Positions 26,905-42,530 of a stretch of 42,530 bases of DNA are shown here, piece after piece; the stretch's first letter is position 1; every line of letters starts with the position of its first letter. The position numbers were made by a program, and so were the translations under genes. This stretch comes from a virus. Taxonomy: Duplodnaviria; Caudoviricetes. The stretch spans positions 1 to 42,530 of IMG/VR virus record IMGVR_UViG_3300032277_002977; one strand, 5' to 3'. Under the pieces are notes generated by a model. It was not told the origin of the DNA and ran no database searches. It saw only the letters and a list, made by a program, of their open reading frames with translations.

Positions 26905-27136
26905 GAACTGTCCAAACTATCCGAACCCTCAGAAACTATCAGTTTTATAACTCCTTGTTTTTCTTGTCTTTTTAGAGGGTTCTGATAGTTCAGATAGTTT
27001 CCCCGACCCGCTCATGCACGCGCCCACGCACATACGTGCCACCTTGGGGAAACTATCTGAACTATCTGGACTATCAGAAAACCGTTTGATTTCAACATCT
27101 TAAAACACCTGATAGTTTCAGATAGTCCAGATAGTT
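26905..27136. repeat. Iteron array, likely replication origin
   Basis: About 11 copies of AACTATC(T/A/C)G in alternating direct and inverted clusters around AT-rich spacers, directly downstream of the helicase gene. Confidence 0.8.
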
Positions 27137-27189
27137 TGAGACCTCTCAACACAACATCTTGGGTCTGAATGTAGCAATATGCATATTCA

Positions 27190-31130: not shown

Positions 31131-31540
31131 GCCCGCACCACCGCCAGTGCAGGCCCATATGATGCAGGCCCGTATGATACGGGCTCAAGCGCCGCCTCAA
31201 TCTGTTCAACAACAACCCGAAGCGCCGCCGCCACCGTCCGGCAGCAGCCCTCCAGCAGACGCGCCCGGCCTTCTTCCCGACCGGGCGTCATCGCCCCGTC
31301 ATCAATCATCCGCCCGCGCAAAAATTCACTCAGCGGCACCCCGTATCCGGCCCGGCAATGCGCCGCCTCCAGGCGATACACCGTCTCCAACACCCGCCAG
31401 TCGCGGCGCATAGGATTGCACAACTGGCGCAGCCGCGACGTCGACACCCCGGCGGCCTCCGCCGCCGTATCGGCCCCCAGCCGCGCCACCATGGCGCTTA
31501 AGAGTCCAGGAACGGTTTCAGGATCGCGGGCGTAGGTCAT
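31127..31540 (-). CDS. CII-like HTH regulator
   Basis: 'GADTAAEAAGVSTSRLRQLCNP' HTH; downstream of cro; GGAGG RBS. Confidence 0.65.
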   Translation of the reverse strand: MTYARDPETVPGLLSAMVARLGADTAAEAAGVSTSRLRQLCNPMRRDWRVLETVYRLEAAHCRAGYGVPLSEFLRGRMIDDGAMTPGREEGRARLLEGCCRTVAAALRVVVEQIEAALEPVSYGPASYGPALAVVRA

Positions 31541-31677
31541 CGCACCCCTCCTAACATCGCGCCGACATTTGGGACTATGCCGCCACGGGCGAGGTCGTCA
31601 GGATGAAACTTGTCATCAGCCACGGGGACTTGAGGATATGACTGGTTTATTTCAGATTGATGTTTTGAGTTTTCCAT
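31537..31677 (-). CDS. 46-aa hypothetical peptide (absent from the ORF track)
   Basis: TGATG-coupled to cro and ATGA-coupled to the CII-like gene. Confidence 0.5.
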   Translation of the reverse strand: MENSKHQSEINQSYPQVPVADDKFHPDDLARGGIVPNVGAMLGGVR

Positions 31678-31943
31678 CATGCGGCTTCCTTACCAAGAAA
31701 CCCACCAGACGCCGCGAGTCGGGCCAACAGGTGCAGGGTAATGCTGTCAATCCCCCGCGCCGACGAACCATTAACCAACGCGCTCCAGATATCTCGATCC
31801 CGCGACCGCGCCGGAATGCTGTTGTGATGTCGCCAACTGCCGACGGTGCCCACAGGCACTTTGACGTCGTGCGCCAGCGCTTCATAAGACGGCCAGCAGT
31901 CAATCAGATCGCGAAAAGTTTTGATGGTGGGTTGGTCAGCCAT
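31677..31943 (-). CDS. cro: Cro-like HTH regulator
   Basis: 'DLIDCWPSYEALAHDVKVPVGTVGSWRHHNSIP'; divergent from the repressor. Confidence 0.8.
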   Translation of the reverse strand: MADQPTIKTFRDLIDCWPSYEALAHDVKVPVGTVGSWRHHNSIPARSRDRDIWSALVNGSSARGIDSITLHLLARLAASGGFLGKEAA

Positions 31944-31955
31944 AACTCAACAAAT

Positions 31956-32023
31956 ATTGATATTTTCAATTTATGTCAAGATGAAATTGATTTCATCAAT
32001 TTTCATAACCTTGATATGGCAAG
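31956..32023. promoter_or_regulatory. OR-like operators and PR promoter
   Basis: ATTGA-N5-TCAAT palindromes at 31956-31970 and 31986-32000, degenerate copy near 32010-32023; TTGACA on the minus strand at 31979-31974. Confidence 0.8.
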
Positions 32024-32064
32024 GAAAACTGCCAAAATTAGTATTATTCCGCCACAGGAAACAC

Positions 32065-32790
32065 ATGATGAATTTTAATTCCACTGCTGAACGGTTGAAA
32101 TTGGCGCGCACATGCGCCGGATTCCGCACCGCCAAGGAATTCGCGGACAAGCACGACATACCCCAGCCGACCTACGCCCAGTACGAAGGCACCGGCAAGT
32201 CAGGGCGGGAATTGACACTAAACACAGCCCGCGAATATGCCGCGCATCTTGGCAATTGCTCCGCCGCATGGCTGTTGACCGGCGAGGGAGAGGCACCCGA
32301 ACAAAAAGACCCAGCACCGACGGCAGCCCAGAAAGAACGTAGCGAAGCAAAAACGGCACTTGAAAAGGCCATCACCAAAGACCCGGATCACCCGCAAAAT
32401 AACCGTGATAAAAAATTCCTGACCGAACTGCGCGAGGAGCAGGCCACCTTCGAAGGCCCGGACAACGCCGATGAACTGCTGAAGGCCCTGTATCCCGCCC
32501 ATCCCCGCGCCGCTTGGATCAAGGCCGGGTCCATGGCGCTGAACCTGCGCGGCATTCTGCCCGGTGACTATCTTGTTTATGACCCGGACATAACCTTCCG
32601 CCCCGGCGTCGATGTGGTCCTACAAGTCGCCGACCCCCAGACCGGCAGCGCAAAAACCCTGCTCCGCCATTTCACCGGCGCAAGTTTTACTGGCATGACC
32701 AGTCTGTCAAAAATCCCTGAAACCGAATATGCCCCTGACCACATGACCGTCTACGGCGTCATTGTCCGGGTCTACCGGGAAAGTTCTTGA
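32065..32790 (+). CDS. cI: CI-like repressor (XRE HTH plus degenerate S24 domain)
   Basis: 'ERLKLAR..AGFRTAKEFA...TYAQYE', 'AAWLLTGEG'; C-terminal 'GSM..GILPGDYLVYDP' and 'VYGVIV'. Confidence 0.88.
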   Translation: MMNFNSTAERLKLARTCAGFRTAKEFADKHDIPQPTYAQYEGTGKSGRELTLNTAREYAAHLGNCSAAWLLTGEGEAPEQKDPAPTAAQKERSEAKTALEKAITKDPDHPQNNRDKKFLTELREEQATFEGPDNADELLKALYPAHPRAAWIKAGSMALNLRGILPGDYLVYDPDITFRPGVDVVLQVADPQTGSAKTLLRHFTGASFTGMTSLSKIPETEYAPDHMTVYGVIVRVYRESS

Positions 32791-33162
32791 TTACCCAGTC
32801 CCGCAGGCCTCGATAACCTGTATTGCCGCTGCGACCGTATCGACCGGATCACCCCACACCGTCATCCGCGACCGCATCTCAAACGCCGACCCTGCCCCCT
32901 CTCTGGTCAACGTGGCCTCCCACAGGGGATGAACAAACCCCTGCTCCCCAAGTGAAAACTGCAGTTTGACGACACTGCCGTCCGCAGTGGCAGAATTCCT
33001 GATGTTCCAGTCACCCGCCGTTCTGTCCGTAAAGCAGAACGCGATATCCCCCGGCGACCCGCTCAACAGGCTTTCATGAACCGGCGATGATGCACGAATA
33101 GTCGAAAGTTCAGCGCATCCGCCCATCGCAATCACCGCCAGAAGCCCGCCCCGCAAACGCAT
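32791..33162 (-). CDS. Small lipoprotein in the immunity region
   Basis: MRLRGGLLAVIAMGG-C lipobox; GGGGAG RBS. Confidence 0.7.
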   Translation of the reverse strand: MRLRGGLLAVIAMGGCAELSTIRASSPVHESLLSGSPGDIAFCFTDRTAGDWNIRNSATADGSVVKLQFSLGEQGFVHPLWEATLTREGAGSAFEMRSRMTVWGDPVDTVAAAIQVIEACGTG

Positions 33163-33269
33163 CCTCACCACCCGACTCCCCTTAATGCTGTTTATTACCA
33201 CTCAGCTTACCACTGCCGGGCAAAATCAAGCAAATACCTCCATTTCAAAGCATATCAATCCGCAAAATA

Positions 33270-33323
33270 ATTGATATTTTCAATTTTTAATTGACAAATA
33301 AATTGATAATTGCAATATTCAAT
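33270..33323 (+). promoter_or_regulatory. OL-like operators and PL promoter
   Basis: ATTGATATTTTCAAT (33270-33284) is identical to the site at 31956; variants at 33302-33323; TTGACA at 33291. Confidence 0.8.
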
Positions 33324-33349
33324 TTACCGAACGTTTTTGGAGCCACCCA

Positions 33350-34198
33350 ATGCCAACCCAAACAATCACAACCCACCGTCAACAAGTCGACAACCTGATC
33401 AGCCGTGGCGCGCTGTTTGTCATCAATCACAGCGGCGGCAAGGATAGCCAGGCAATGGATGCCGTTTTGCGGAAAATTGTCCCAGCCGCCCAGATCGTTC
33501 GGGTTCATTGTGATCTTGGTGACGTTGAGTGGATGGGCGTGAAAGAACACATCAGCGCCAACATCAACGGAGCCGACCTCCATCTGGCTCATGCCATCTA
33601 CAAGGACGGATCACCGAAAACCTTTCTCAACATGGTCGCTAATCGTCACCAGAAAAATCTGGAAAAGGGCAAGAATGTTTCGCCATGGCCATCAAGCGGT
33701 TGCCGGGAATGCACCAGTGATCTGAAAACCGGTCCCGGCAACAAAGTTATCCGCCGCCTGTCCAATGAAACGGGGCGTAAGATCATCGTTTCGTGTTTTG
33801 GTTTCCGTGCCGAGGAAAGTGACCGCCGCGCTGCCAAGGTCCAACTGGGACTGGACGCCAAGAACTGCACCGCCGGTCGGGAATGGTACGAATTTTCCCC
33901 CATCCATGACCTGACCACTGAACAGGTGTTTCAGGTGATCGCGCAAGCCGGTCAGAAACCGCACTGGGCCTATCAACGCAATGACCGTTTATCCTGCGTC
34001 TTTTGTGTCTTCGGCAGCTTAGGTGACCTGCGCCACGGCGCGGAACAGCGCCCGGAACTTTATCGCCAATACGTCGAACTAGAACATGCCACCGGCAAGA
34101 CCATCCGCCACGGCAAAACCCTGGAACAGGTCACCGGAATCTATCTGAACCCGTTGGCACCTGCCAACCATTTGGCATGGGCCAAAATAGCCGCGTGA
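33350..34198 (+). CDS. PAPS-reductase-family (PP-loop) protein
   Basis: 'HSGGKDS', 'RECTSDLKTGP', 'GFRAEES.RR' and 'RLSCVFC' motifs. Confidence 0.88.
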   Translation: MPTQTITTHRQQVDNLISRGALFVINHSGGKDSQAMDAVLRKIVPAAQIVRVHCDLGDVEWMGVKEHISANINGADLHLAHAIYKDGSPKTFLNMVANRHQKNLEKGKNVSPWPSSGCRECTSDLKTGPGNKVIRRLSNETGRKIIVSCFGFRAEESDRRAAKVQLGLDAKNCTAGREWYEFSPIHDLTTEQVFQVIAQAGQKPHWAYQRNDRLSCVFCVFGSLGDLRHGAEQRPELYRQYVELEHATGKTIRHGKTLEQVTGIYLNPLAPANHLAWAKIAA

Positions 34199-34214
34199 AA
34201 ACAGGAGCCACCCG

Positions 34215-34523
34215 ATGACCGCCACCATCCACCCCTTTCCGTTTATCCAGACCCGGTTCCTCCCGGACCCGCCTGCCGATCCGCAAACCTTGATCGCCGA
34301 TTTCGGGCACCCCCACTGGCCCGGCTGGAAATGGTTGATGTGGCTGCTGCTGGTCCTGCAGGTCGCCGCCTTTCTCAATACCCAGCCCATGGCCCGGACA
34401 CCGCGCCTCACCGGCGGCGGGGCGCGGCTGGTCCGTGGCGCAACCCGCAATTCCTCATCGCGCACCGGGTCGCGCATCCCCTCACGCACCAGCCGCAAAC
34501 TTTCTTCAACCACGATCAACTAA
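34215..34523 (+). CDS. Hypothetical protein with one TM segment
   Basis: AGGAG RBS, ATG 34215; the 3' reading frame is uncertain. Confidence 0.45.
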   Translation: MTATIHPFPFIQTRFLPDPPADPQTLIADFGHPHWPGWKWLMWLLLVLQVAAFLNTQPMARTPRLTGGGARLVRGATRNSSSRTGSRIPSRTSRKLSSTTIN

Positions 34524-34557
34524 CGCTCATCAACCCCTCTGGGAAAAGGACCGTTCC

Positions 34558-35067
34558 ATGCCAAACGAAACCACAAAATCCGAAATCTCACAACACGGCC
34601 TCGTCACCCCCGAACAGGCGCTGGCCGCGCATTCCGCCGAGGAAAAACAGCGCTGGGACGCCGTCTCGAAATCCGCCACCCGGTATTTCAACAGCGGTGG
34701 TGAAACCCTGGCCCTGGCATGGGCCAGACAGCAACGCGACCTCACCCTGTTCATCACCGGCGACAGTGAAGTCGCCAAACGACAGGGCGAAGCTGTTTTG
34801 ACCCGCTGCCGCGAGCAGGGCTTCCGCCCCGATGTCACCCCCCAGTCTCACGCCATCCCCATACACGCACCCCGGCGCAGCACCTACGAACAGCGCCAGT
34901 CGGGCAAACCGAAAGCCGATAACGACCGCAGCAGGCAGCGCAAGTGCCTGACCTGCGGGGGACACTTTTTATCGGAAGGCCCGCACAACCGCCGGTGCAA
35001 TTCCTGCACCAACCAGCTCCACGATACCGGATCGCCCGGCCAGATGATCGAACAGATGGCGGTCTGA
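34558..35067 (+). CDS. Hypothetical protein with a C-terminal zinc finger
   Basis: AAGGA RBS; 'RKCLTCGGHFLSEGPHNRRCNSC'. Confidence 0.7.
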   Translation: MPNETTKSEISQHGLVTPEQALAAHSAEEKQRWDAVSKSATRYFNSGGETLALAWARQQRDLTLFITGDSEVAKRQGEAVLTRCREQGFRPDVTPQSHAIPIHAPRRSTYEQRQSGKPKADNDRSRQRKCLTCGGHFLSEGPHNRRCNSCTNQLHDTGSPGQMIEQMAV

Positions 35068-35188
35068 TGTTCTGCCGCCTTCTCAGACAGTTTTCCCGCT
35101 GGCGCTTCCGCCAGTCCCTCAAACGCCGCCGCCACAGCGCCAAGAAATCGACATGGATCAAAATCTCCAAACCAAGGACATGGAATTT

Positions 35189-35950
35189 ATGACTGATACT
35201 TTCAACCCCGAAGACCGCCGCATCACCACGCAGGCCAAATATCTGGCCATGCTGCTGCCGTTCATGTCGAAGCAAGAAACACGTTATTATCTGAATGGAA
35301 TTTATGTCACCCCGCATCCGGCGGATGATGGGATATTGCTGGTCGCCACGGACGGCCACCGCATGGGCATTATTCATGACCGGGACGGCTCATGTGAACA
35401 CGGCCCCTGGACCTGCACAATCCCCAAGCGCGCAACGGCGACCTTGAAAATTCGCCCAGGCGTCAAAAATCTGCATACCAAACCCTGTCTCGCCCATTTC
35501 TGCGGGCAGGCGCTGTTCATAACCTCGTTCGGCTTTGAACCCGACGACGACCCCACCAGCTTTGGCGCTCACCACCTGATCGGCTGCCACGCCGGGGCGA
35601 TTAATGGGACCTATCCCGAATGGCAGAAAGTCGTCCCGACCGGCATCGGCAAACGCACCGCGAAGCACCTGAGTTTCAATCCGACCTACCTTGCCGACTT
35701 CAAGCAAGTCGCACGCTTGTCCGGGATTGATCACCCTGTCGTTACCATCTTCGCACCGGACACCCCAAACGGGCCCAGCCGCATTCTTGTTCAAAATGTC
35801 CCGGAGTTTGCCGGAGTGATCATGCCGTGCCGCGAAGAGGGTGTTCTGGACCAGCGCTGGCTGGATCAGGCGATCACCAAGCTACGGAAACCAAAAAAAC
35901 AGACGAAACCAAAACGCAAGATCGCCACTCCAGCGAAAAAGGCCGCGTGA
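35189..35950 (+). CDS. DNA polymerase III beta-clamp-like protein (partial clamp fold)
   Basis: 'ETRYYLNGI', 'LVATDGHRM', 'GTYPEWQKVVP', 'FNPTYL' and 'VIMP' motifs. Confidence 0.8.
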   Translation: MTDTFNPEDRRITTQAKYLAMLLPFMSKQETRYYLNGIYVTPHPADDGILLVATDGHRMGIIHDRDGSCEHGPWTCTIPKRATATLKIRPGVKNLHTKPCLAHFCGQALFITSFGFEPDDDPTSFGAHHLIGCHAGAINGTYPEWQKVVPTGIGKRTAKHLSFNPTYLADFKQVARLSGIDHPVVTIFAPDTPNGPSRILVQNVPEFAGVIMPCREEGVLDQRWLDQAITKLRKPKKQTKPKRKIATPAKKAA

Positions 35951-35975
35951 TCACCAACATAAGGAACTGGAATTC

Positions 35976-36386
35976 ATGACTGAGTACCGCCGCGTTATTC
36001 TCGAAAGCCCGTTCGCAGCCCCGACCACCGCAGGCGTGCGCCGCCATATCGCTTATGCCCGCGCCTGCATCAGGGATTCCCTTGATCGCGACGAGGCCCC
36101 CTTCGCCAGTCACCTTCTTTACACCCAGCGCGGCATTCTCAACGACCGCAACCCGGACGAACGAAAGCGCGGCATTGACGCCGGTCTGGCCTGGGGGACG
36201 GAAGCCGACTTGACCGTCGTTTATATCGACCTCGGCGTCACACAGGGCATGCTTCAGGGCATTGAACGCGCCATGACCGAGGGCCGACCGGTCGAACAGC
36301 GCTCATTGCCGGACTGGGCCGACAACCCCAGGCAGGTCCTGAAAACTGGCGCGGCCAACGAAGACACCCCGCCAGAGGCCGCCTGA
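35976..36386 (+). CDS. Nucleoside-deoxyribosyltransferase-like phage protein
   Basis: 'VILESPFA', 'EAPFASHLLYTQ' and 'VVYIDLGVTQGM' motifs. Confidence 0.65.
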   Translation: MTEYRRVILESPFAAPTTAGVRRHIAYARACIRDSLDRDEAPFASHLLYTQRGILNDRNPDERKRGIDAGLAWGTEADLTVVYIDLGVTQGMLQGIERAMTEGRPVEQRSLPDWADNPRQVLKTGAANEDTPPEAA

Positions 36387-36496
36387 TGGAACAGACACTA
36401 ATACTGGCCCAGACCTTCATCCCCGTTCTTGGGTTTACGCTGGCCGCCCTCTGGCTGATCAGCCGCCCCGGCGCTTGCCGTGCGGTCTGGGACTGA
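36386..36496 (+). CDS. 36-aa membrane peptide (absent from the ORF track)
   Basis: TGATG coupling; MEQTLILAQTFIPVLGFTLAALWLISRPGACRAVWD*. Confidence 0.5.
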   Translation: MEQTLILAQTFIPVLGFTLAALWLISRPGACRAVWD

Positions 36497-36500
36497 GCCG

Positions 36501-36950
36501 ATGCCTTTTGACCTCACACCAGATCAATGCCCCACCGCGCGACGCATGGGAGTTGCCATCATGATCAAAAACCAGCACCCGTCCCTGGACTGCCCAAACT
36601 GCGACAAGCGCTTCACCCCGACGCGCCGCAACCAGACCTGTTGCTCCGCCGACTGCCGCCGCCAGCATGAGACCCGCAAGCGCCAGATCAGACGACAGAA
36701 ACCACCCGCCAAGGCGACCTGCGACTGGTGCGAAACCGTCTTCACCCCGAAACCCGGCCAGAAATATTGCAGCCCCGACTGCCGCCGCGCCGAGGATGAT
36801 TTTTGCAAGGCCTGGGGACGGCGGCTCTATGACATCGTCATCAAATGGCGCTACCGGGGCCGCAAGTCCAGCCTCAGCGCCGCCTGCCAGATTTTCGCCC
36901 GCATGTGGCAAGCCCGCAAACAACAGATCAAAGGAAAATCCGATGCGTGA
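36501..36950 (+). CDS. Tandem zinc-finger protein
   Basis: Two CxxC..FTP..CSxDCRR repeats. Confidence 0.7.
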   Translation: MPFDLTPDQCPTARRMGVAIMIKNQHPSLDCPNCDKRFTPTRRNQTCCSADCRRQHETRKRQIRRQKPPAKATCDWCETVFTPKPGQKYCSPDCRRAEDDFCKAWGRRLYDIVIKWRYRGRKSSLSAACQIFARMWQARKQQIKGKSDA

Positions 36951-37224
36951 ACGGATCATACAAGCAATCCATAAAACGTGGTGGAAGAACCCGGTGATGG
37001 GATCGTGCGGTGCCGAAATTGCTGACGCCGTACTCAACGTCATGAAAGACCGTATCACAGCGGAACAAATCGGGCGCACCATTCTTGATGAATTGACAGC
37101 ACGGGAAGTGCTGCATGACATGAATGTTCATGAAGAATGGGAACTAAAAATGGTTATGGGCGAAGTCGCTTTAAATCAAATGTTCCCACAACGCAACAGT
37201 GAGGCCGACAATGCCAGCGATTAA
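36943..37224 (+). CDS. Hypothetical protein
   Basis: AAGGA RBS, ATG 36943. Confidence 0.6.
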   Translation: MRERIIQAIHKTWWKNPVMGSCGAEIADAVLNVMKDRITAEQIGRTILDELTAREVLHDMNVHEEWELKMVMGEVALNQMFPQRNSEADNASD

Positions 37225-37603
37225 TTTTCTCCAACGCTATGCGCCCGCCATTTTGGTAGGCACAAAACACCAGACGATCCGCAAACCTAGGGCCGATCAC
37301 CGACCTCATGCAACAATCGGCGCGAAGCTATTTCTCTATACTGGGATGCGTTCAAAATCCTGCAAGAAATTGTTCGAGACGGTCTGCACAAACACCAGTC
37401 AGATCGTTATCGATAACGACCCATACCGAGTAATCGTCAACGGCGTTGAGGTTCAGGACGAAGATAGATTCGCCCAAGCAGACGGCTTTCCAAGTGTCGC
37501 TGAACTGTTTGATTTCTTCGAAGAAACCCACGGCCTGCCCTTCCACGGAACCCTAATCGAGTGGGAACCACCAACCTCCGTGGAGCGGGAGAAACGGGAA
37601 TGA
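37211..37603 (+). CDS. ASCH-domain protein
   Basis: 'GTKHQTIR', 'LYTGMR' and 'FAQADGF' motifs. Confidence 0.8.
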   Translation: MPAINFLQRYAPAILVGTKHQTIRKPRADHRPHATIGAKLFLYTGMRSKSCKKLFETVCTNTSQIVIDNDPYRVIVNGVEVQDEDRFAQADGFPSVAELFDFFEETHGLPFHGTLIEWEPPTSVEREKRE

Positions 37604-37908
37604 GTGATTGCGGCGAATGCGCAAACGACAACAGCATTCGGTGTCCTGAGTGTCCACACGGACCCTGGATGCTAATTGATAGCGCGCCAAAAGACGGCAC
37701 CCGCGTTTTGGTCTGGGTGCTCGCCATACCGGAGCTTCATCCAGACAGTTATTCCTCGGCATCTATTGCCGAATGGATAGACCACAATGGTGGTGGGTGG
37801 ACGTGGCACGGGCTGGCCGGAACGATAACCCATTGGATGCCTTTGCCGGATGGACCTGAATATCCCGATGAAGAAGAAATCTCCGTTTCCGGGTCTGGTG
37901 ACGAATAA
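37600..37908 (+). CDS. DUF551-like phage protein
   Basis: 'W..IDSAPKDGTRVL' and 'THWMPLP' motifs. Confidence 0.8.
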   Translation: MSDCGECANDNSIRCPECPHGPWMLIDSAPKDGTRVLVWVLAIPELHPDSYSSASIAEWIDHNGGGWTWHGLAGTITHWMPLPDGPEYPDEEEISVSGSGDE

Positions 37909-38204
37909 TGTATCGGCCTTGCGTAAATAACTTAGATGACGGGTGCCTTTTGGACGGAGTTCCATGTGTTTTTGATTGCCCCTTATTCGAGAAAGACGAA
38001 GCAACACCTAGCGTTGACGACCTTACAAACTATTGGGATCAGATGATCAAAGAGGTTTCGGGCAAGCGAACCGGGTTTGAAGGCGAAACAGCCACAAGCG
38101 GCAGAACTCCACCATTCCCGATTGCTGTCCCAAAACCTCAAAATTGCACAAACCCGAAAACGGATGAGATTCCGGGAGTGGGAGAAAGGAGCGAAAATGA
38201 CTGA
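37908..38204 (+). CDS. Hypothetical Cys-containing protein
   Basis: TAATG coupling to the upstream gene. Confidence 0.55.
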   Translation: MYRPCVNNLDDGCLLDGVPCVFDCPLFEKDEATPSVDDLTNYWDQMIKEVSGKRTGFEGETATSGRTPPFPIAVPKPQNCTNPKTDEIPGVGERSEND

Positions 38205-38295
38205 ATTACATCTATTTTTGTTTTGTCTGTCAGGGAGCGCGGCGGGCGTACTGGCGGTCACTATTTGGTTTCTGCAATGAGGGAGTAGAGGGATT

Positions 38296-38433
38296 ATGCG
38301 GTTAAAGATTTTACGCTTGATAGGTGGTGTTCACGACTTCCGGTGGTTTGGTGTGTGTATTCATGACGGCGGATTTTTTGTTTATCGAATCACATACGAA
38401 CGCGGCTGGATGTTTCGCACAAGGTTTAACTAA
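38296..38433 (+). CDS. 45-aa hypothetical protein (absent from the ORF track)
   Basis: GAGGG RBS; MRLKILRLIGGVHDFRWFGVCIHDGGFFVYRITYERGWMFRTRFN*. Confidence 0.45.
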   Translation: MRLKILRLIGGVHDFRWFGVCIHDGGFFVYRITYERGWMFRTRFN

Positions 38434-38485
38434 CGAGCGTTGCCGAGATACCGGCATCGGAACAATCGAGCCCATGGATAACACG

Positions 38486-38662
38486 ATGAAAATTATACTT
38501 GAAGCCGATGAAATAAATGCTGCGTTACGCGAGGTAGCGGCAGAAAAGGTGCGATCCGTTTTTGAATTTGGCGAAGACGATTGCTGTTTTGAAGTTGTAG
38601 ATGAGTCCGGCAACGACGTTCTGATCGATGATATCAGTTTCGTCTGCACGGTTTCATCATAG
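38486..38662 (+). CDS. Small acidic hypothetical protein
   Basis: MKIILEADEINAALRE..., 58 aa. Confidence 0.55.
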   Translation: MKIILEADEINAALREVAAEKVRSVFEFGEDDCCFEVVDESGNDVLIDDISFVCTVSS

Positions 38663-38686
38663 CCCACCAATGAGGGTGAACTGACA

Positions 38687-38893
38687 ATGGCGGCGGAAAT
38701 TTATATTTTTGAGAACGGGCAGCGTTGTGGTGTTGGCGTCAAGAGCGACTACACAATTTGCGGAGACGCCCCGGAGGAAGATGTTGACGGCTTCAGGGAA
38801 TATCAGCAGGCAATCGGGACGATTAACTGCCCAGACTGCATTGCGCATATCGAATGGATTAAATCACTGCGCCGATGGAAGGCGCACTCTTAA
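38687..38893 (+). CDS. Small Cys-containing hypothetical protein
   Basis: 'TICGDA..INCPDC'; GAGGG upstream. Confidence 0.6.
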   Translation: MAAEIYIFENGQRCGVGVKSDYTICGDAPEEDVDGFREYQQAIGTINCPDCIAHIEWIKSLRRWKAHS

Positions 38894-38921
38894 GGGAGCC
38901 TCTAACGAAAGGAGTTGAACG

Positions 38922-39068
38922 ATGATGGATTCAAAGCAGATCAAAACGATGTCCACCAAGGTGGTGAATGATACAGCGAAAAAGCTGGTAGAACCAGAAA
39001 CGGGGAACCGCGCCGCACGCCGAAAAGAAAAGGCCCTGAAGAAGAAAAAAAGACGGAGGGCCGCATAA
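38922..39068 (+). CDS. 48-aa Arg/Lys-rich peptide (absent from the ORF track)
   Basis: AAGGAG RBS; ends ...GNRAARRKEKALKKKKRRRAA*; TAATG-coupled to the next gene. Confidence 0.7.
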   Translation: MMDSKQIKTMSTKVVNDTAKKLVEPETGNRAARRKEKALKKKKRRRAA

Positions 39069-39331
39069 TGTCAGAGATAACGCTTGGCGATGCACCGATT
39101 GAAGACAAACAGCGGGACGTGATGAACGCAGTGGCCGAGGGCCTTGACAAGGTTTTCAACGGTGATGGCAAAAAGGAGACCGGGTTTGTCCTGCTGGTTT
39201 TTCCGTATGACGGACACGAGGGCCGCGCCAACTATATCTCTAACGGTGCAGATCGAGCGGATGTTGTCACGCTCATGAAAGAGCAGATTGCACGATTTGA
39301 AGGTCAGCCCGAACTCAGCGGGTCGGCGTAA
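39068..39331 (+). CDS. Hypothetical phage protein
   Basis: 'GFVLLVFPY..GRANYISN..RAD' pattern; GGAGGG RBS. Confidence 0.7.
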   Translation: MSEITLGDAPIEDKQRDVMNAVAEGLDKVFNGDGKKETGFVLLVFPYDGHEGRANYISNGADRADVVTLMKEQIARFEGQPELSGSA

Positions 39332-39354
39332 CCGACTAAGAGGGGTAATCGAGA

Positions 39355-39537
39355 ATGACTTTAAAAAGAGGTCGAGACCTCACACGAGACGAGTTTTTGG
39401 AAATTAAAGGCGACCGCAAACCCGATGATGAAACCCACGATGCAGAGAGTGCAATGCTGTACTGGAATATTGACGGGAAGACGTACGTTGAACAGCAGCA
39501 CGATATTGGCGGCTGCGAATGGTTTGTAGCGGAATAG
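39355..39537 (+). CDS. Hypothetical protein
   Basis: 60 aa, GAGGGG upstream. Confidence 0.55.
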   Translation: MTLKRGRDLTRDEFLEIKGDRKPDDETHDAESAMLYWNIDGKTYVEQQHDIGGCEWFVAE

Positions 39538-39551
39538 AGGGCGTAACGAAA

Positions 39552-40220
39552 ATGACGAGATCGAGCGCGGAATATGAGATTAGAGAGGCGGTGGTCCAAA
39601 GGCTTCGTGACGAATTTCCGTCTGGTCGAATCATTCATGAACTGAACTGTGAGCAGGGCCGCAATAGAATTGATGTTGCGTGTGTTACCCCCTCACTAAT
39701 TATTTCTGTCGAAATCAAATCAGAAAAAGACACGCTGAAACGCCTTGCTGATCAAGTGAGGTCATTCCAATCGTGTAGTCACTTCGTCATTGTCGCTGCC
39801 CATGAGATTTTTTTTGAGGAATTCACTTACAACAATGGGCTTCCAGGATTTCGACCAAATACAGAGCTATTTAAGGGTAGCGAACAATCTCAGTTATGGC
39901 TTTACCCACGCCCAGACGAAGTTCTCAAAAATCGGTACCAGTGGCGCGCCCTTGATATTCGAAGAGCCGCATTGATCGATACTCGCGCATTAATGCGGCT
40001 GATGTGGGCCGATGAGCTTCGCATGACAGTTAGGAATGCCGGTATTCAGATAACCGGCATTGCCCGTGCTTCCAAAGATCATTTAACAAAAGTTCTGTGG
40101 TCACAGCTTACCGGCGCAGAAATCACAGCGGCCACTTGCAGGTACTTACGCGCCAGAGAGTTTGCGGAAGCAGACCCTCGCATCGGATTGGAACCGGCAC
40201 CTGACCTATTGGTGTCTTAA
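39552..40220 (+). CDS. PD-(D/E)xK nuclease-fold protein (MmcB/sce7726-like)
   Basis: 'IIHE..RIDVA..VEIKSEKDTLKRLADQ' motif. Confidence 0.75.
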   Translation: MTRSSAEYEIREAVVQRLRDEFPSGRIIHELNCEQGRNRIDVACVTPSLIISVEIKSEKDTLKRLADQVRSFQSCSHFVIVAAHEIFFEEFTYNNGLPGFRPNTELFKGSEQSQLWLYPRPDEVLKNRYQWRALDIRRAALIDTRALMRLMWADELRMTVRNAGIQITGIARASKDHLTKVLWSQLTGAEITAATCRYLRAREFAEADPRIGLEPAPDLLVS

Positions 40221-40241
40221 AGGAGCGTTAACAGGAGATAT

Positions 40242-40317
40242 GCGGACATGAGCGTAATTGGCAACGCCCCAGCCTTCCAAGCTGGCGATCCGGGTTCGAG
40301 CCCCGGTGTCCGCTCCA
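40242..40317 (+). tRNA. tRNA-Gly(TCC)
   Basis: Acceptor GCGGACA/TGTCCGC, D-stem GCGT/ACGC, anticodon arm CCAGC-CTTCCAA-GCTGG, T-arm CCGGG-TTCGAGC-CCCGG, discriminator T, encoded CCA. Confidence 0.92.
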
Positions 40318-40325
40318 ACCCATCA

Positions 40326-40988
40326 ATGAGCATTGAAAGGGAAAGAAGCCTGAATGAACTGGAAGTTGACGAAACGTCTGAATTCCTGATCGGATACGCG
40401 AGGGTGTCTACGACAGATCAGCATTTGCATTTGCAGATGGATGCGATGACAGCGGCGGGGATATCCGAGGACAGGATATACAAGGAATACAAGTCCGGGG
40501 CGACCACCAAGCGTCCGGAGTTTGAGGCCTGCCTGAAAGCGCTCAGGGGGGGGGATACGCTTGTTGTGTGGCGTCTGGATCGTCTGGGGCGATCTCTTCC
40601 CGATCTAATCCGTATCCTATCCGACCTCAAGGAACGCGGCATCAAATTTCGGTCATTGAACGAAATGATCGACACATCTTCGCCCATGGGCAATTTCATA
40701 TTCCATATCTTCGGTGCGGTTGCTCAATTCGAACGCGACCTTATTTCCGAACGCACCAGGGCGGGTTTAGCTGCTGCCAAATTGCGCGGCCATGTCGGGG
40801 GGCGCAAATCCACAGTGACGCCGGACAAGTTGCGCGCCGCGCGGATCATGCTGGAGGACGGACTCAAGACACATACGGCGGTTTTCAAAGCGCTTGGTAT
40901 TTCCAGTTCGGCCTATTACCGGGCGGCGGCGAAGGCGCGGGACGCGGCGGAAATCGTGGACGAGATGACAAGGGGTGAGGTGAACTAG
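40326..40988 (+). CDS. Small serine recombinase (resolvase/invertase family); start uncertain, frame open from 40248
   Basis: 'IGYARVST.DQ', 'GDTLVVWRLDRLGRS', 'FERDLISERT.AGL' and a C-terminal HTH. Confidence 0.93.
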   Translation: MSIERERSLNELEVDETSEFLIGYARVSTTDQHLHLQMDAMTAAGISEDRIYKEYKSGATTKRPEFEACLKALRGGDTLVVWRLDRLGRSLPDLIRILSDLKERGIKFRSLNEMIDTSSPMGNFIFHIFGAVAQFERDLISERTRAGLAAAKLRGHVGGRKSTVTPDKLRAARIMLEDGLKTHTAVFKALGISSSAYYRAAAKARDAAEIVDEMTRGEVN

Positions 40989-41065
40989 ATGGATGTTGTG
41001 ATTTTGACGCGGCGTGAGGACGATAGCCTTCAAGTAGAGCTAGACGAGGACTAACAACAGACACC

Positions 41066-41350
41066 ATGCCCATCCCCTCCGACACTGACTCCAGGACGAA
41101 AAAACAGGCTGTTATGCCGGACTGGCCGCGCGGACTGTCTGAACCTTTGGCTGCTCTTTATGTCGGCGTTAGCGTCACCAAATTTCGAGATGAGGTCAAG
41201 AACCGGGTCTGGCCGGAAGGCGAACGTCGGGGCGGACGTATCATATATGACAAAGAACTTCTCGACCGAGCGTTTGACAAGCGTAGCGGCATTGTGGAAA
41301 CATCCATCGACCTTGACGCAGAGTTCGAGATCCCGCATGGCACCGATTAA
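41066..41350 (+). CDS. Excisionase-like HTH protein
   Basis: 'WPRGLS...AALYVGVS...F...V...WP' pattern; overlaps the integrase start. Confidence 0.75.
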   Translation: MPIPSDTDSRTKKQAVMPDWPRGLSEPLAALYVGVSVTKFRDEVKNRVWPEGERRGGRIIYDKELLDRAFDKRSGIVETSIDLDAEFEIPHGTD

Positions 41351-42530
41351 GATTCCCAACATGAGGCCAAAGCCGCTTGAAACTGGCGGGGTCGGTTACT
41401 ATTGGGAAGTCCCCAGCAAGGACCGAAAAAAAGGCTGCCCGCACGAAAGCGAACCCCTTGGTACCGACCTGTCGGAAGCCATCGCGCGGTCGGAATTTCT
41501 AAACACAATGTTAAGGGAATGGCGGCGCGGCGAACCAGCCACCACCGGACCCGCCCCCGGCACCGTCGCGTGGCTTTTCAAACAGGTAGAATCCCACCCC
41601 AAGTTTCTGAAAACCGCCGCCGCCACCCAGCACGGATATAAAAAGGGTTTCCGCCTGATCGAGTCGTTCATATTACCCAAAAGCCGCACACCGTTTGGAA
41701 AGGTTCCGGCCCGAGCCGTTCAGGAACGTCACGTCGATTACCTGTACGAGGGCCTGCAGTGGGTCGATGATGTTGGCGATGACGGCAAAGAAATCAAGCG
41801 CCGCCGGTTATCGTCGGCAAACGCCGCCATGCGTGCGGCGCGGCGGGCCTGGTCAATTGGGAAACGCGCCGGATGGGTCGGCAGTGACAACCCGTTTCTG
41901 AAAATGGAACTCGAAGCCACCGGCGGAGAAACCCGCGCCGCGACACGGGCGGAAGTTGAAACCTTTATCGCCAAAGCCGATGAAATGGGCAGGCCGTCCA
42001 TGGCCCTTGCGGCAATGCTGGCGTTTGAATTATGCCAGCGTGAGAATGATGTAATCGGCACCATCACCTGGAACCATTACCGACCAGGCGTTGAAATCAA
42101 GGTCCGCCAGCACAAGACCAAACAATGGGTCTGGGTGCCCCTTTATGACGAGGAAGGCGAACTGTTCCCGGAATTGACCGAACGCCTTGAAAGCACCCCA
42201 CAACGCGGCACGTTGCTGGTCATGAGGGACCGACCTGACCAAAGAAAGAAGGTTTTTCTTCCCTACAAACAGGACCACTTCCAGCACCTCTATCGAGACA
42301 TCGCCAACGCCGCCGGACTGTCAAAAGAACTGAAATTCATGGGCTTCCGCCATGGCGGCCTGACGGAACTGGGCGACGCCGGGGCGACCCACAAAGAATT
42401 GCAATCCCACAGCGGCCATAAAACCGTCCAGCAGCTTGAAGTCTACACCAAATCCACCACCGTGCAGGCCGGAAATGCGGCGCGAAAACGCCGGGCTTTT
42501 AGAACGAAATCAGCACAAAGTTCGGAATGA
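41337..42530 (+). CDS. int: Tyrosine integrase
   Basis: 'CQRENDV', 'QHKT', 'FRHGG' and 'SGHKT...VY' catalytic residues. Confidence 0.92.
   Translation: MAPIKIPNMRPKPLETGGVGYYWEVPSKDRKKGCPHESEPLGTDLSEAIARSEFLNTMLREWRRGEPATTGPAPGTVAWLFKQVESHPKFLKTAAATQHGYKKGFRLIESFILPKSRTPFGKVPARAVQERHVDYLYEGLQWVDDVGDDGKEIKRRRLSSANAAMRAARRAWSIGKRAGWVGSDNPFLKMELEATGGETRAATRAEVETFIAKADEMGRPSMALAAMLAFELCQRENDVIGTITWNHYRPGVEIKVRQHKTKQWVWVPLYDEEGELFPELTERLESTPQRGTLLVMRDRPDQRKKVFLPYKQDHFQHLYRDIANAAGLSKELKFMGFRHGGLTELGDAGATHKELQSHSGHKTVQQLEVYTKSTTVQAGNAARKRRAFRTKSAQSSE

Follow-up and report, generated by a model that had tools for sequence, protein, structure and literature searches.

A phage tRNA-Gly variant with a three-base connector, apparently conserved as an RNA structure, ahead of a serine recombinase gene

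In mitochondrial tRNA punctuation, the processing of tRNAs frees the adjacent genes, and in tRNA-Gly the bases C35 and C36 act as identity elements. Departures from the canonical cloverleaf have been described in several forms: allo-tRNAs come in 8/4 and 9/3 forms (accessible text of PMC5389517), and tRNA-Pyl and mitochondrial tRNA-Ser(UCN) have a 1-nt connector between the acceptor and D stems (accessible text of PMC7609411). As to where phages keep their tRNA genes, a single tRNA near a tyrosine integrase is an arrangement known from actinophages (accessible text of PMC10865867).

The DNA analysed here (the window, 42,530 nt) is the entire IMG/VR provirus record IMGVR_UViG_3300032277_002977, 72% complete according to CheckV. 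Its matches to phrog families describe a lambda-like gene set with head, tail, primase, repressor and integrase genes, and those integrase relatives whose source is named point to an alphaproteobacterial host. In the distal part of the plus-strand early region, an upstream phage gene is followed by the tRNA, a serine recombinase, a small DNA-binding gene whose product we infer from its position to be excisionase-like, and the integrase (Table 1). No promoter-like or terminator-like sites were found between 39400 and 41400, where the counts were at chance level. A 21-codon ORF (40989-41054) begins on the base right after the recombinase stop, has a strong Shine-Dalgarno (SD) sequence (GGTGAGGTG) within the recombinase 3' end and ends 11 nt upstream of the SD-less start of the excisionase-like gene; it may encode a coupling peptide. 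Elsewhere in the provirus, the left end (1-2024) holds accessory-looking genes, namely a small ORF (1-339), a phrog_16154 gene (512-1129) that we take to be a LysE-like transporter and an unassigned ORF of 277 aa (1191-2024). The early region at 33350-36386 carries genes resembling those of PAPS reductase, sliding clamp and nucleoside 2-deoxyribosyltransferase, and two DNA methyltransferase genes lie in other parts of the window. At 26913-27138, just 3' of the primase gene, CTGATAGTT/AACTATCAG repeats in direct and inverted orientation lie clustered and are likely the replication origin.

Table 1. Features of the tRNA-recombinase-integrase region, in window coordinates
Feature	Position	Strand	Remarks
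Upstream phage gene, phrog_984, without assigned function	39552..40220	+	21 nt between the TAA stop and the tRNA
First AGGAG, right after the upstream stop	40221..40225	+	14 nt from ATG 40240
CAGGAG, SD-like	40232..40237	+	2 nt from ATG 40240; 10 nt from ATG 40248
Minigene ATG-CGG-ACA-TGA, 3 codons	40240..40251	+	Poorly placed SD
tRNA-Gly(UCC), 76 nt, encoded CCA	40242..40317	+	ARAGORN, Rfam RF00005
26 open codons through the tRNA, in the recombinase frame	40248..40325	+	Possible extension, sequence only
3-nt connector UGA between acceptor and D stems	40249..40251	+	Canonical connector is 2 nt; one base more
Weak hairpin over ATG 40326, -5.9 kcal/mol	40319..40341	+	Predicted
Small serine recombinase, Pin/Hin invertase-resolvase type, 220 aa	40326..40988	+	ATG 40326, 8 nt after CCA; alternative start CTG 40350
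Small DNA-binding protein, phrog_25900	41066..41350	+	Precedes the integrase
Tyrosine integrase, 397 aa	41337..42530	+	att site past the window end

A preliminary description of this region had noted both the tRNA-Gly and its three-base connector, and both were borne out. ARAGORN called a single tRNA in the window, Gly(TCC) at 40242-40317, which scored 59.5 bits against Rfam RF00005 (cut-off 29) with one inserted base, located in the connector; the ARAGORN parse of identical arms in relatives likewise gives the connector as 'sss'. In place of the canonical two bases (8 and 9) there are three, UGA, and the D stem has 4 bp (GCGU/ACGC, counted from the conserved D loop). The tRNA-Gly identity bases are present, C35/C36 as well as G1-C72, C2-G71, G3-C70 and U73, the acceptor set being that given in the accessible part of PMC8629427. 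The minimum free energy fold of 40215-40345 loses the cloverleaf and was not taken as evidence. Over 31314-42530 the window agrees letter for letter with a Logan contig from run X1 (perhaps the source data), so that the extra base is not the slip of one assembly. Glycine is encoded 740 times in 21 phage genes, by GGA in 93 and GGG in 218 cases (phage genes only), and the tRNA most likely adds to, or protects, the pool that reads GGA/GGG.

The same tRNA shape recurs in other sequences. A metagenome scan with a tRNA-Gly pattern that left four D-stem bases free yielded seven loci (L172-L178). Of these, L173 comes from the contig of the window itself, and the remaining six resemble the window at 80-86%, within the tRNA only. 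Despite the four free D-stem bases, UGA together with GCGU/ACGC was present in all seven. Two further Gly members are L188 and L270/L296, the latter pair being one phage. Over the six distinct Gly sequences, 126 of 126 stem cells pair, two-sided changes are seen at 6 of the 21 stem pairs, and covariation reaches 0.362 as against 0.144 when shuffled and at most 0.089 when slid, kinship inflating the shuffle test. The D stem is invariant across the six aligned sequences and is therefore backed by pairing only.

Other isotypes share the feature. A viral scan with the D arm alone gave 43 matches, four of them tRNAs (Gly, Thr, His and Lys) that each start exactly 7 nt upstream of the TGA; the Thr, His and Lys genes with UGA and GCGU/ACGC lie within tRNA arrays (L183, L189, L205), and in the Thr and Lys genes the register stops after 10 codons. 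A broad connector scan returned 120 viral matches from 7 of 64 parts, of which 79 had good anticodon and T stems; among these the connector was of 3 nt in 13 and of 2 nt in 9, the remainder falling in other registers, so mostly noise was captured by this pattern. The 13 well-formed tRNAs with a 3-nt connector, L270 and L296 among them, comprise several isotypes and several connector sequences. Those found in arrays (L183:1494-1569, L189, L205, L319, L274 and L225; Thr, His and Lys) have UGA and the same D stem in three cases and UAA in two Lys(UUU) genes. The form is nevertheless rare: in a sample of 131 neighbour tRNAs, unselected and with 4 bp in the D stem, the connector has 2 nt in 122 and 3 nt in at most three. 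The Gly pattern had no match in 401 genomes of the class of G002, two stricter tRNA patterns produced zero and one unrelated match on viral sequences, and no family member is among the matches listed for annotated phages and plasmids, the best of which begin after the connector or are about 80% alike.

Genes adjoining the Gly tRNAs match phage families in 7 of 8 scanned loci, and the neighbours include tail, terminase, pyrophosphatase and unassigned genes as well as other tRNAs; in L188, itself a viral record, they gave no phage-family match. As judged from these alignments, the tRNA-Gly variant is conserved as an RNA structure in unrelated phage-like loci, and it belongs to a small class of three-base-connector tRNAs in phages, apparently not described before, that spans Gly, Thr, His and Lys. 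Such a class would bear on how much departure at position 8-9 is tolerated by the P-site, synthetase, RNase P and modification enzymes, and also on whether phage tRNAs, which reportedly act as counter-defence, change shape to escape host tRNA-targeting defences. Our guess, a speculative one, is that the extra base is tolerated by the translation machinery and alters recognition by host tRNA-targeting or tRNA-modifying enzymes. No class of this kind is described in the literature searched, mostly without subscription journals and supplements and including the accessible parts of PMC7609411, PMC5389517, PMC8629427 and PMC11441406.

The preliminary description had gone further, noting that the extra base creates the ATGA overlap ahead of the recombinase and naming conservation of the tRNA-recombinase arrangement, with its shared frame, as a check. 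Comparison bore out neither an extra base made for the overlap nor a conserved adjacency. The eight other Gly loci keep the base, with TTG at bases 7-9 in five and ATG in three, and none of the eight has an SD before these bases. No recombinase stands behind the tRNA in any of the seven with usable flank (L175 ends 25 nt after it), so the extra base predates the recombinase and does not depend on it. Conversely, no tRNA lies within 450 nt upstream of the recombinase in 160 relative loci (80 viral and 80 from genomes, the best 80 of 335 and of 570 in partial scans), a test at the level of the family, since relatives with DNA context are only 39-58% identical. Four tRNAs occur in the viral and four in the genome loci, the nearest 484 nt upstream. 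The closest recombinase proteins (56-66% identical) come as protein sequence only, without DNA context. Single-protein scans of viral contigs with the recombinase and the integrase found no relative, no sister phage was found, and none of eight viral relatives of the upstream phrog_984-type gene is then followed by a tRNA within 1 kb. Stops and frame breaks in the homologous tRNAs, named beforehand as evidence against a dual function, do occur: in five of the eight loci the frame stops inside the tRNA (L188, a 75-nt member) or 1-15 codons past the CCA (1 in L178, 4 in L270/L296, 7 in L172 and 15 in L176), and in the others it continues across the following tRNA for 37 codons (L177), past the contig end (L175) or for 87 codons (L174).

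Within the window itself, the reading of the start region was partly upheld. The minigene, the ATGA overlap of its stop with ATG 40248 and a frame without stops from there through the tRNA into the recombinase (ORF 40248-40988, 246 aa) are all as first read. The AGGAG said to serve as ribosome binding site of ATG 40240 is misplaced for that purpose, with motifs 14 and 2 nt away. Expressing SD strength as the computed duplex energy with the anti-SD motif, ATG 40248 has -6.2 kcal/mol at 10 nt, the best of any in-frame start, and CTG 40350 has -4.3 at 7 nt through AAGGGA (40337-42); ATG 40326, correctly noted to have no binding site, has 0 kcal/mol, and ATG 40240 arrives at -7.8 only by extended imperfect pairing 11 nt away. 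The SD is thus spaced to the start of the read-through frame and not to that of the minigene. With the second AGGAG placed 10 nt before ATG 40248, translation can do without the minigene; as translation entry it was rejected on SD spacing, and it is likely incidental. For comparison, 15 of 17 correctly framed plus-strand ORFs (ORF 40990 left out) have an SD of -4 or better for some start, a count inflated by picking the best one. The opening cost, with tRNA tertiary structure ignored, is 9.6 at 40248 and 10.8 at 40326, neighbours ranging from 5.9 to 19.2 kcal/mol; on the 3' fragment that tRNA removal leaves behind, 40326 costs 5.5 instead of 10.8 kcal/mol.

Open frames through tRNAs are frequent in themselves. 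At least one stop-free sense frame exists in 201 of 267 distinct tRNAs from the loci covered. Of the 206 with enough flank, a start near the 5' end reads through in 94 (an SD accompanies 4 of these), the frame stays open for 80 codons past the tRNA in 5, and SD, start and 80 open codons are combined in none, many tRNAs in this sample being array tRNAs. The recombinase side is similar, with 48 or more open codons ahead of GYAR in 19 of 151 relatives, so that each part taken singly is common. The combination of SD, start and open frame is uncommon, yet not rare enough to stand out of a search of this size.

The recombinase matches PF00239 (2e-46; residues 48-182 of the 246-aa ORF) and the DNA invertase family phrog_125 (3e-68), and keeps the Ser nucleophile and RLDR motif of the PF00239 catalytic domain. 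No hix/gix-like crossover site was matched in the window (provirus 72% complete), nor was any clear repeat pair or invertible segment seen there. Homologous recombinases mostly begin at the catalytic motif, with short variable extensions: a start lies within 6 codons of GYAR in 123 of 151 relatives, 54 of these 123 having an SD of -4 or better, and in the remaining 28 the nearest start is 7-23 codons upstream, like ATG 40326 (22 codons). An SD is lacking at the start of 75.4% of Caulobacter genes (accessible text of PMC4117421). The earlier suggestion of the tRNA as an N-terminal extension gating the recombinase finds no support as a conserved design; what remains of it is that, here, no in-frame start has a better SD than ATG 40248, and that at two other family loci (L174, L270/L296) a plausible frame passes through the tRNA into the gene behind it.

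We therefore favour, with moderate confidence, a conserved phage tRNA variant, likely used as a tRNA, a recombinase that likely starts at ATG 40326 and a through-frame that is probably a by-product. The 3-nt shape recurs in tRNAs from several phage-like sequences that are unrelated, so the window's tRNA likely functions in the ordinary way. The tRNA-Gly would be co-transcribed with the early operon, there being no promoter-like or terminator-like site found nearby, and host RNase P and a 3' nuclease would cut it out of the transcript. Host GlyRS would then charge it for reading GGA/GGG, and the recombinase would initiate at the SD-less ATG 40326, eased once the tRNA is removed; CTG 40350 is a second candidate start.

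It seems doubtful to us that ribosomes instead cross the tRNA. On that account, where no SD fits, they would start at AUG(7-9) or just upstream and traverse the unprocessed tRNA, giving either an in-frame fusion, as for this recombinase, or an ATGA stop with reinitiation, as for the terminase of L270/L296; the transcript would be mRNA or tRNA, with folding or cutting setting the level of the downstream gene. In the window, CAGGAG precedes ATG 40248 by 10 nt while ATG 40326 is SD-less, in a phage most of whose early genes have an SD-like start (the 15 of 17 given above, best start picked), and the opening cost at 40248 is no worse than at 40326; however, an unrelated TTG frame in the window also ends in ATGA at 40326, which shows that such overlaps arise easily. 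In L270/L296, ATG(7-9) follows the stop of the upstream gene by 10 nt; from there the frame passes through the tRNA and ends in a TGA that shares bases with the ATG of the SD-less terminase, located 10 nt past the CCA. Coupling at ATGA is common in experiments (accessible text of PMC6728339). In L174, an ATG with a strong SD (GAGGAGG-ATG), placed 12 codons upstream of the tRNA, shares this register, which stays open for 87 codons past the CCA, but the downstream gene has its own SD. These crossing frames are post hoc, two or three in number, and differ in downstream gene and geometry. More generally, among 306 tRNAs a long ORF starts within 30 nt in 22 and within 14 nt in 9 (one of the 9 with an SD). 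The crossing frame is present in 6 of the 9 near cases (5 of 8 without the window), as compared with 3 of 13 farther ones and a null of 226/873 (26%), yet the nine include related loci and unverified ORFs, and a rough binomial p is 0.03-0.08. Conservation of the tRNA by itself keeps the register open, and the register is broken in the 75-nt L188; changes within the family track base pairs rather than codons. Ribosomes relayed across a tRNA would, if real, represent a new type of translational control; translation across tRNA genes is not described in the literature searched, mostly without subscription journals and supplements. It is unlikely, in our estimation, that the UGA connector, AUG(7-9) and open register form a phage tRNA chassis droppable into packed operons and crossed by ribosomes, with processing or host-defence cleavage switching an SD-less gene.

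Two of these loci have features of their own. The tRNA-Gly at L270:389-483 (equivalent to L350:1496-1590; L296/L349 are the same phage) lies between a 65-aa gene, from which it is separated by 4 nt, and the gene for the terminase large subunit. At L174:72-455, a gene-start cassette of some 25 nt recurs behind both the tRNA and the gene that comes next, as if inserted.

Less probable still is a tRNA-dependent lysogeny, in which integration disrupts a host tRNA-Gly(UCC) and the phage copy, 1 kb before the integrase, replaces it, the recombinase being a bystander. This concerns the purpose of the tRNA and is compatible with independent initiation of the recombinase. The single tRNA near a tyrosine integrase recalls the actinophage arrangement, integrase relatives adjoin tRNA 3' ends, and the Logan contig ends 105 nt past the integrase stop. 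However, in the one full example (L343, with a 51% identical integrase) an intact tRNA-Lys(CTT) lies 79 nt past the stop, the ordinary arrangement, and the contig of another integrase relative ends in a tRNA-like 3' end; an intact tRNA-Lys and a tRNA-like 3' end beside integrase relatives favour ordinary integration. Furthermore, no tRNA-Gly remnant was found at the window's left end, and other members of the tRNA family sit in tail, terminase or array contexts. The 60 kb beside an integrase relative in G157 held no match to the recombinase or structural genes of this phage. Repeated TGTCGGAA/TGTCAGAA-like motifs occur at or just past integrase ends (window 42519-42530, L343:2745-2780 and L342:1195-1235), with a tRNA 3' end 80-100 nt beyond them, and are probably arm-type att sites.

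Finally, the extra base could stem from faulty assembly or from the decay of a tRNA gene that is dead, which would suit the rarity of the 3-nt connector (at most 3 of 131) and the absence of the pattern from the 401 genomes. This origin is highly improbable and largely refuted by the identical second assembly and by family conservation: nine Gly loci and three other isotypes have the same base at the same place, every stem is intact, changes in the stems are compensatory, and the CCA and the identity bases are preserved.

Returning to the preferred reading of a conserved tRNA variant in ordinary use, its nearest counterpart is the canonical tRNA-Gly(UCC) (RF00005; E. coli glyT type, as in L171), with which the window tRNA shares the 7/4/5/5 stems, UCC, a 4-nt variable loop, G1-C72, C2-G71, G3-C70, U73 and an encoded CCA. 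It differs in having UGA for two bases and a D stem, GCGU/ACGC, that is fixed across isotypes, and the type comes from phage-like loci and not from the 401 genomes of the class of G002. Other non-canonical phage and bacterial tRNAs are also cloverleaf variants, some of them in alphaproteobacterial phage tRNA clusters, as far as the accessible sources go; in contrast to the allo-tRNAs, tRNA-Pyl and mitochondrial tRNA-Ser(UCN) as there described, the acceptor branch here has the canonical 7/5 form and the connector is lengthened instead of shortened. The recombinase shares with the Pin/Hin/Gin invertases and Tn3-type resolvases the GYARVS catalytic start, RLDRLGR, a length of about 200 aa and a C-terminal helical DNA-binding part, but it has a 22-codon leader before GYAR and, unlike the 160 relatives, a tRNA upstream. 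With tRNA-dependent lysogeny (accessible text of PMC10865867) the provirus has in common a temperate phage, a tyrosine integrase and a nearby phage tRNA, whereas the integrase relative examined keeps an intact tRNA-Lys and the att site lies beyond the window. Termination-reinitiation at ATGA overlaps (accessible text of PMC6728339) shares the ATGA; here a tRNA gene would contain the upstream frame. The layout also resembles mitochondrial tRNA punctuation, in that a tRNA likewise abuts an SD-less gene that tRNA processing could free.
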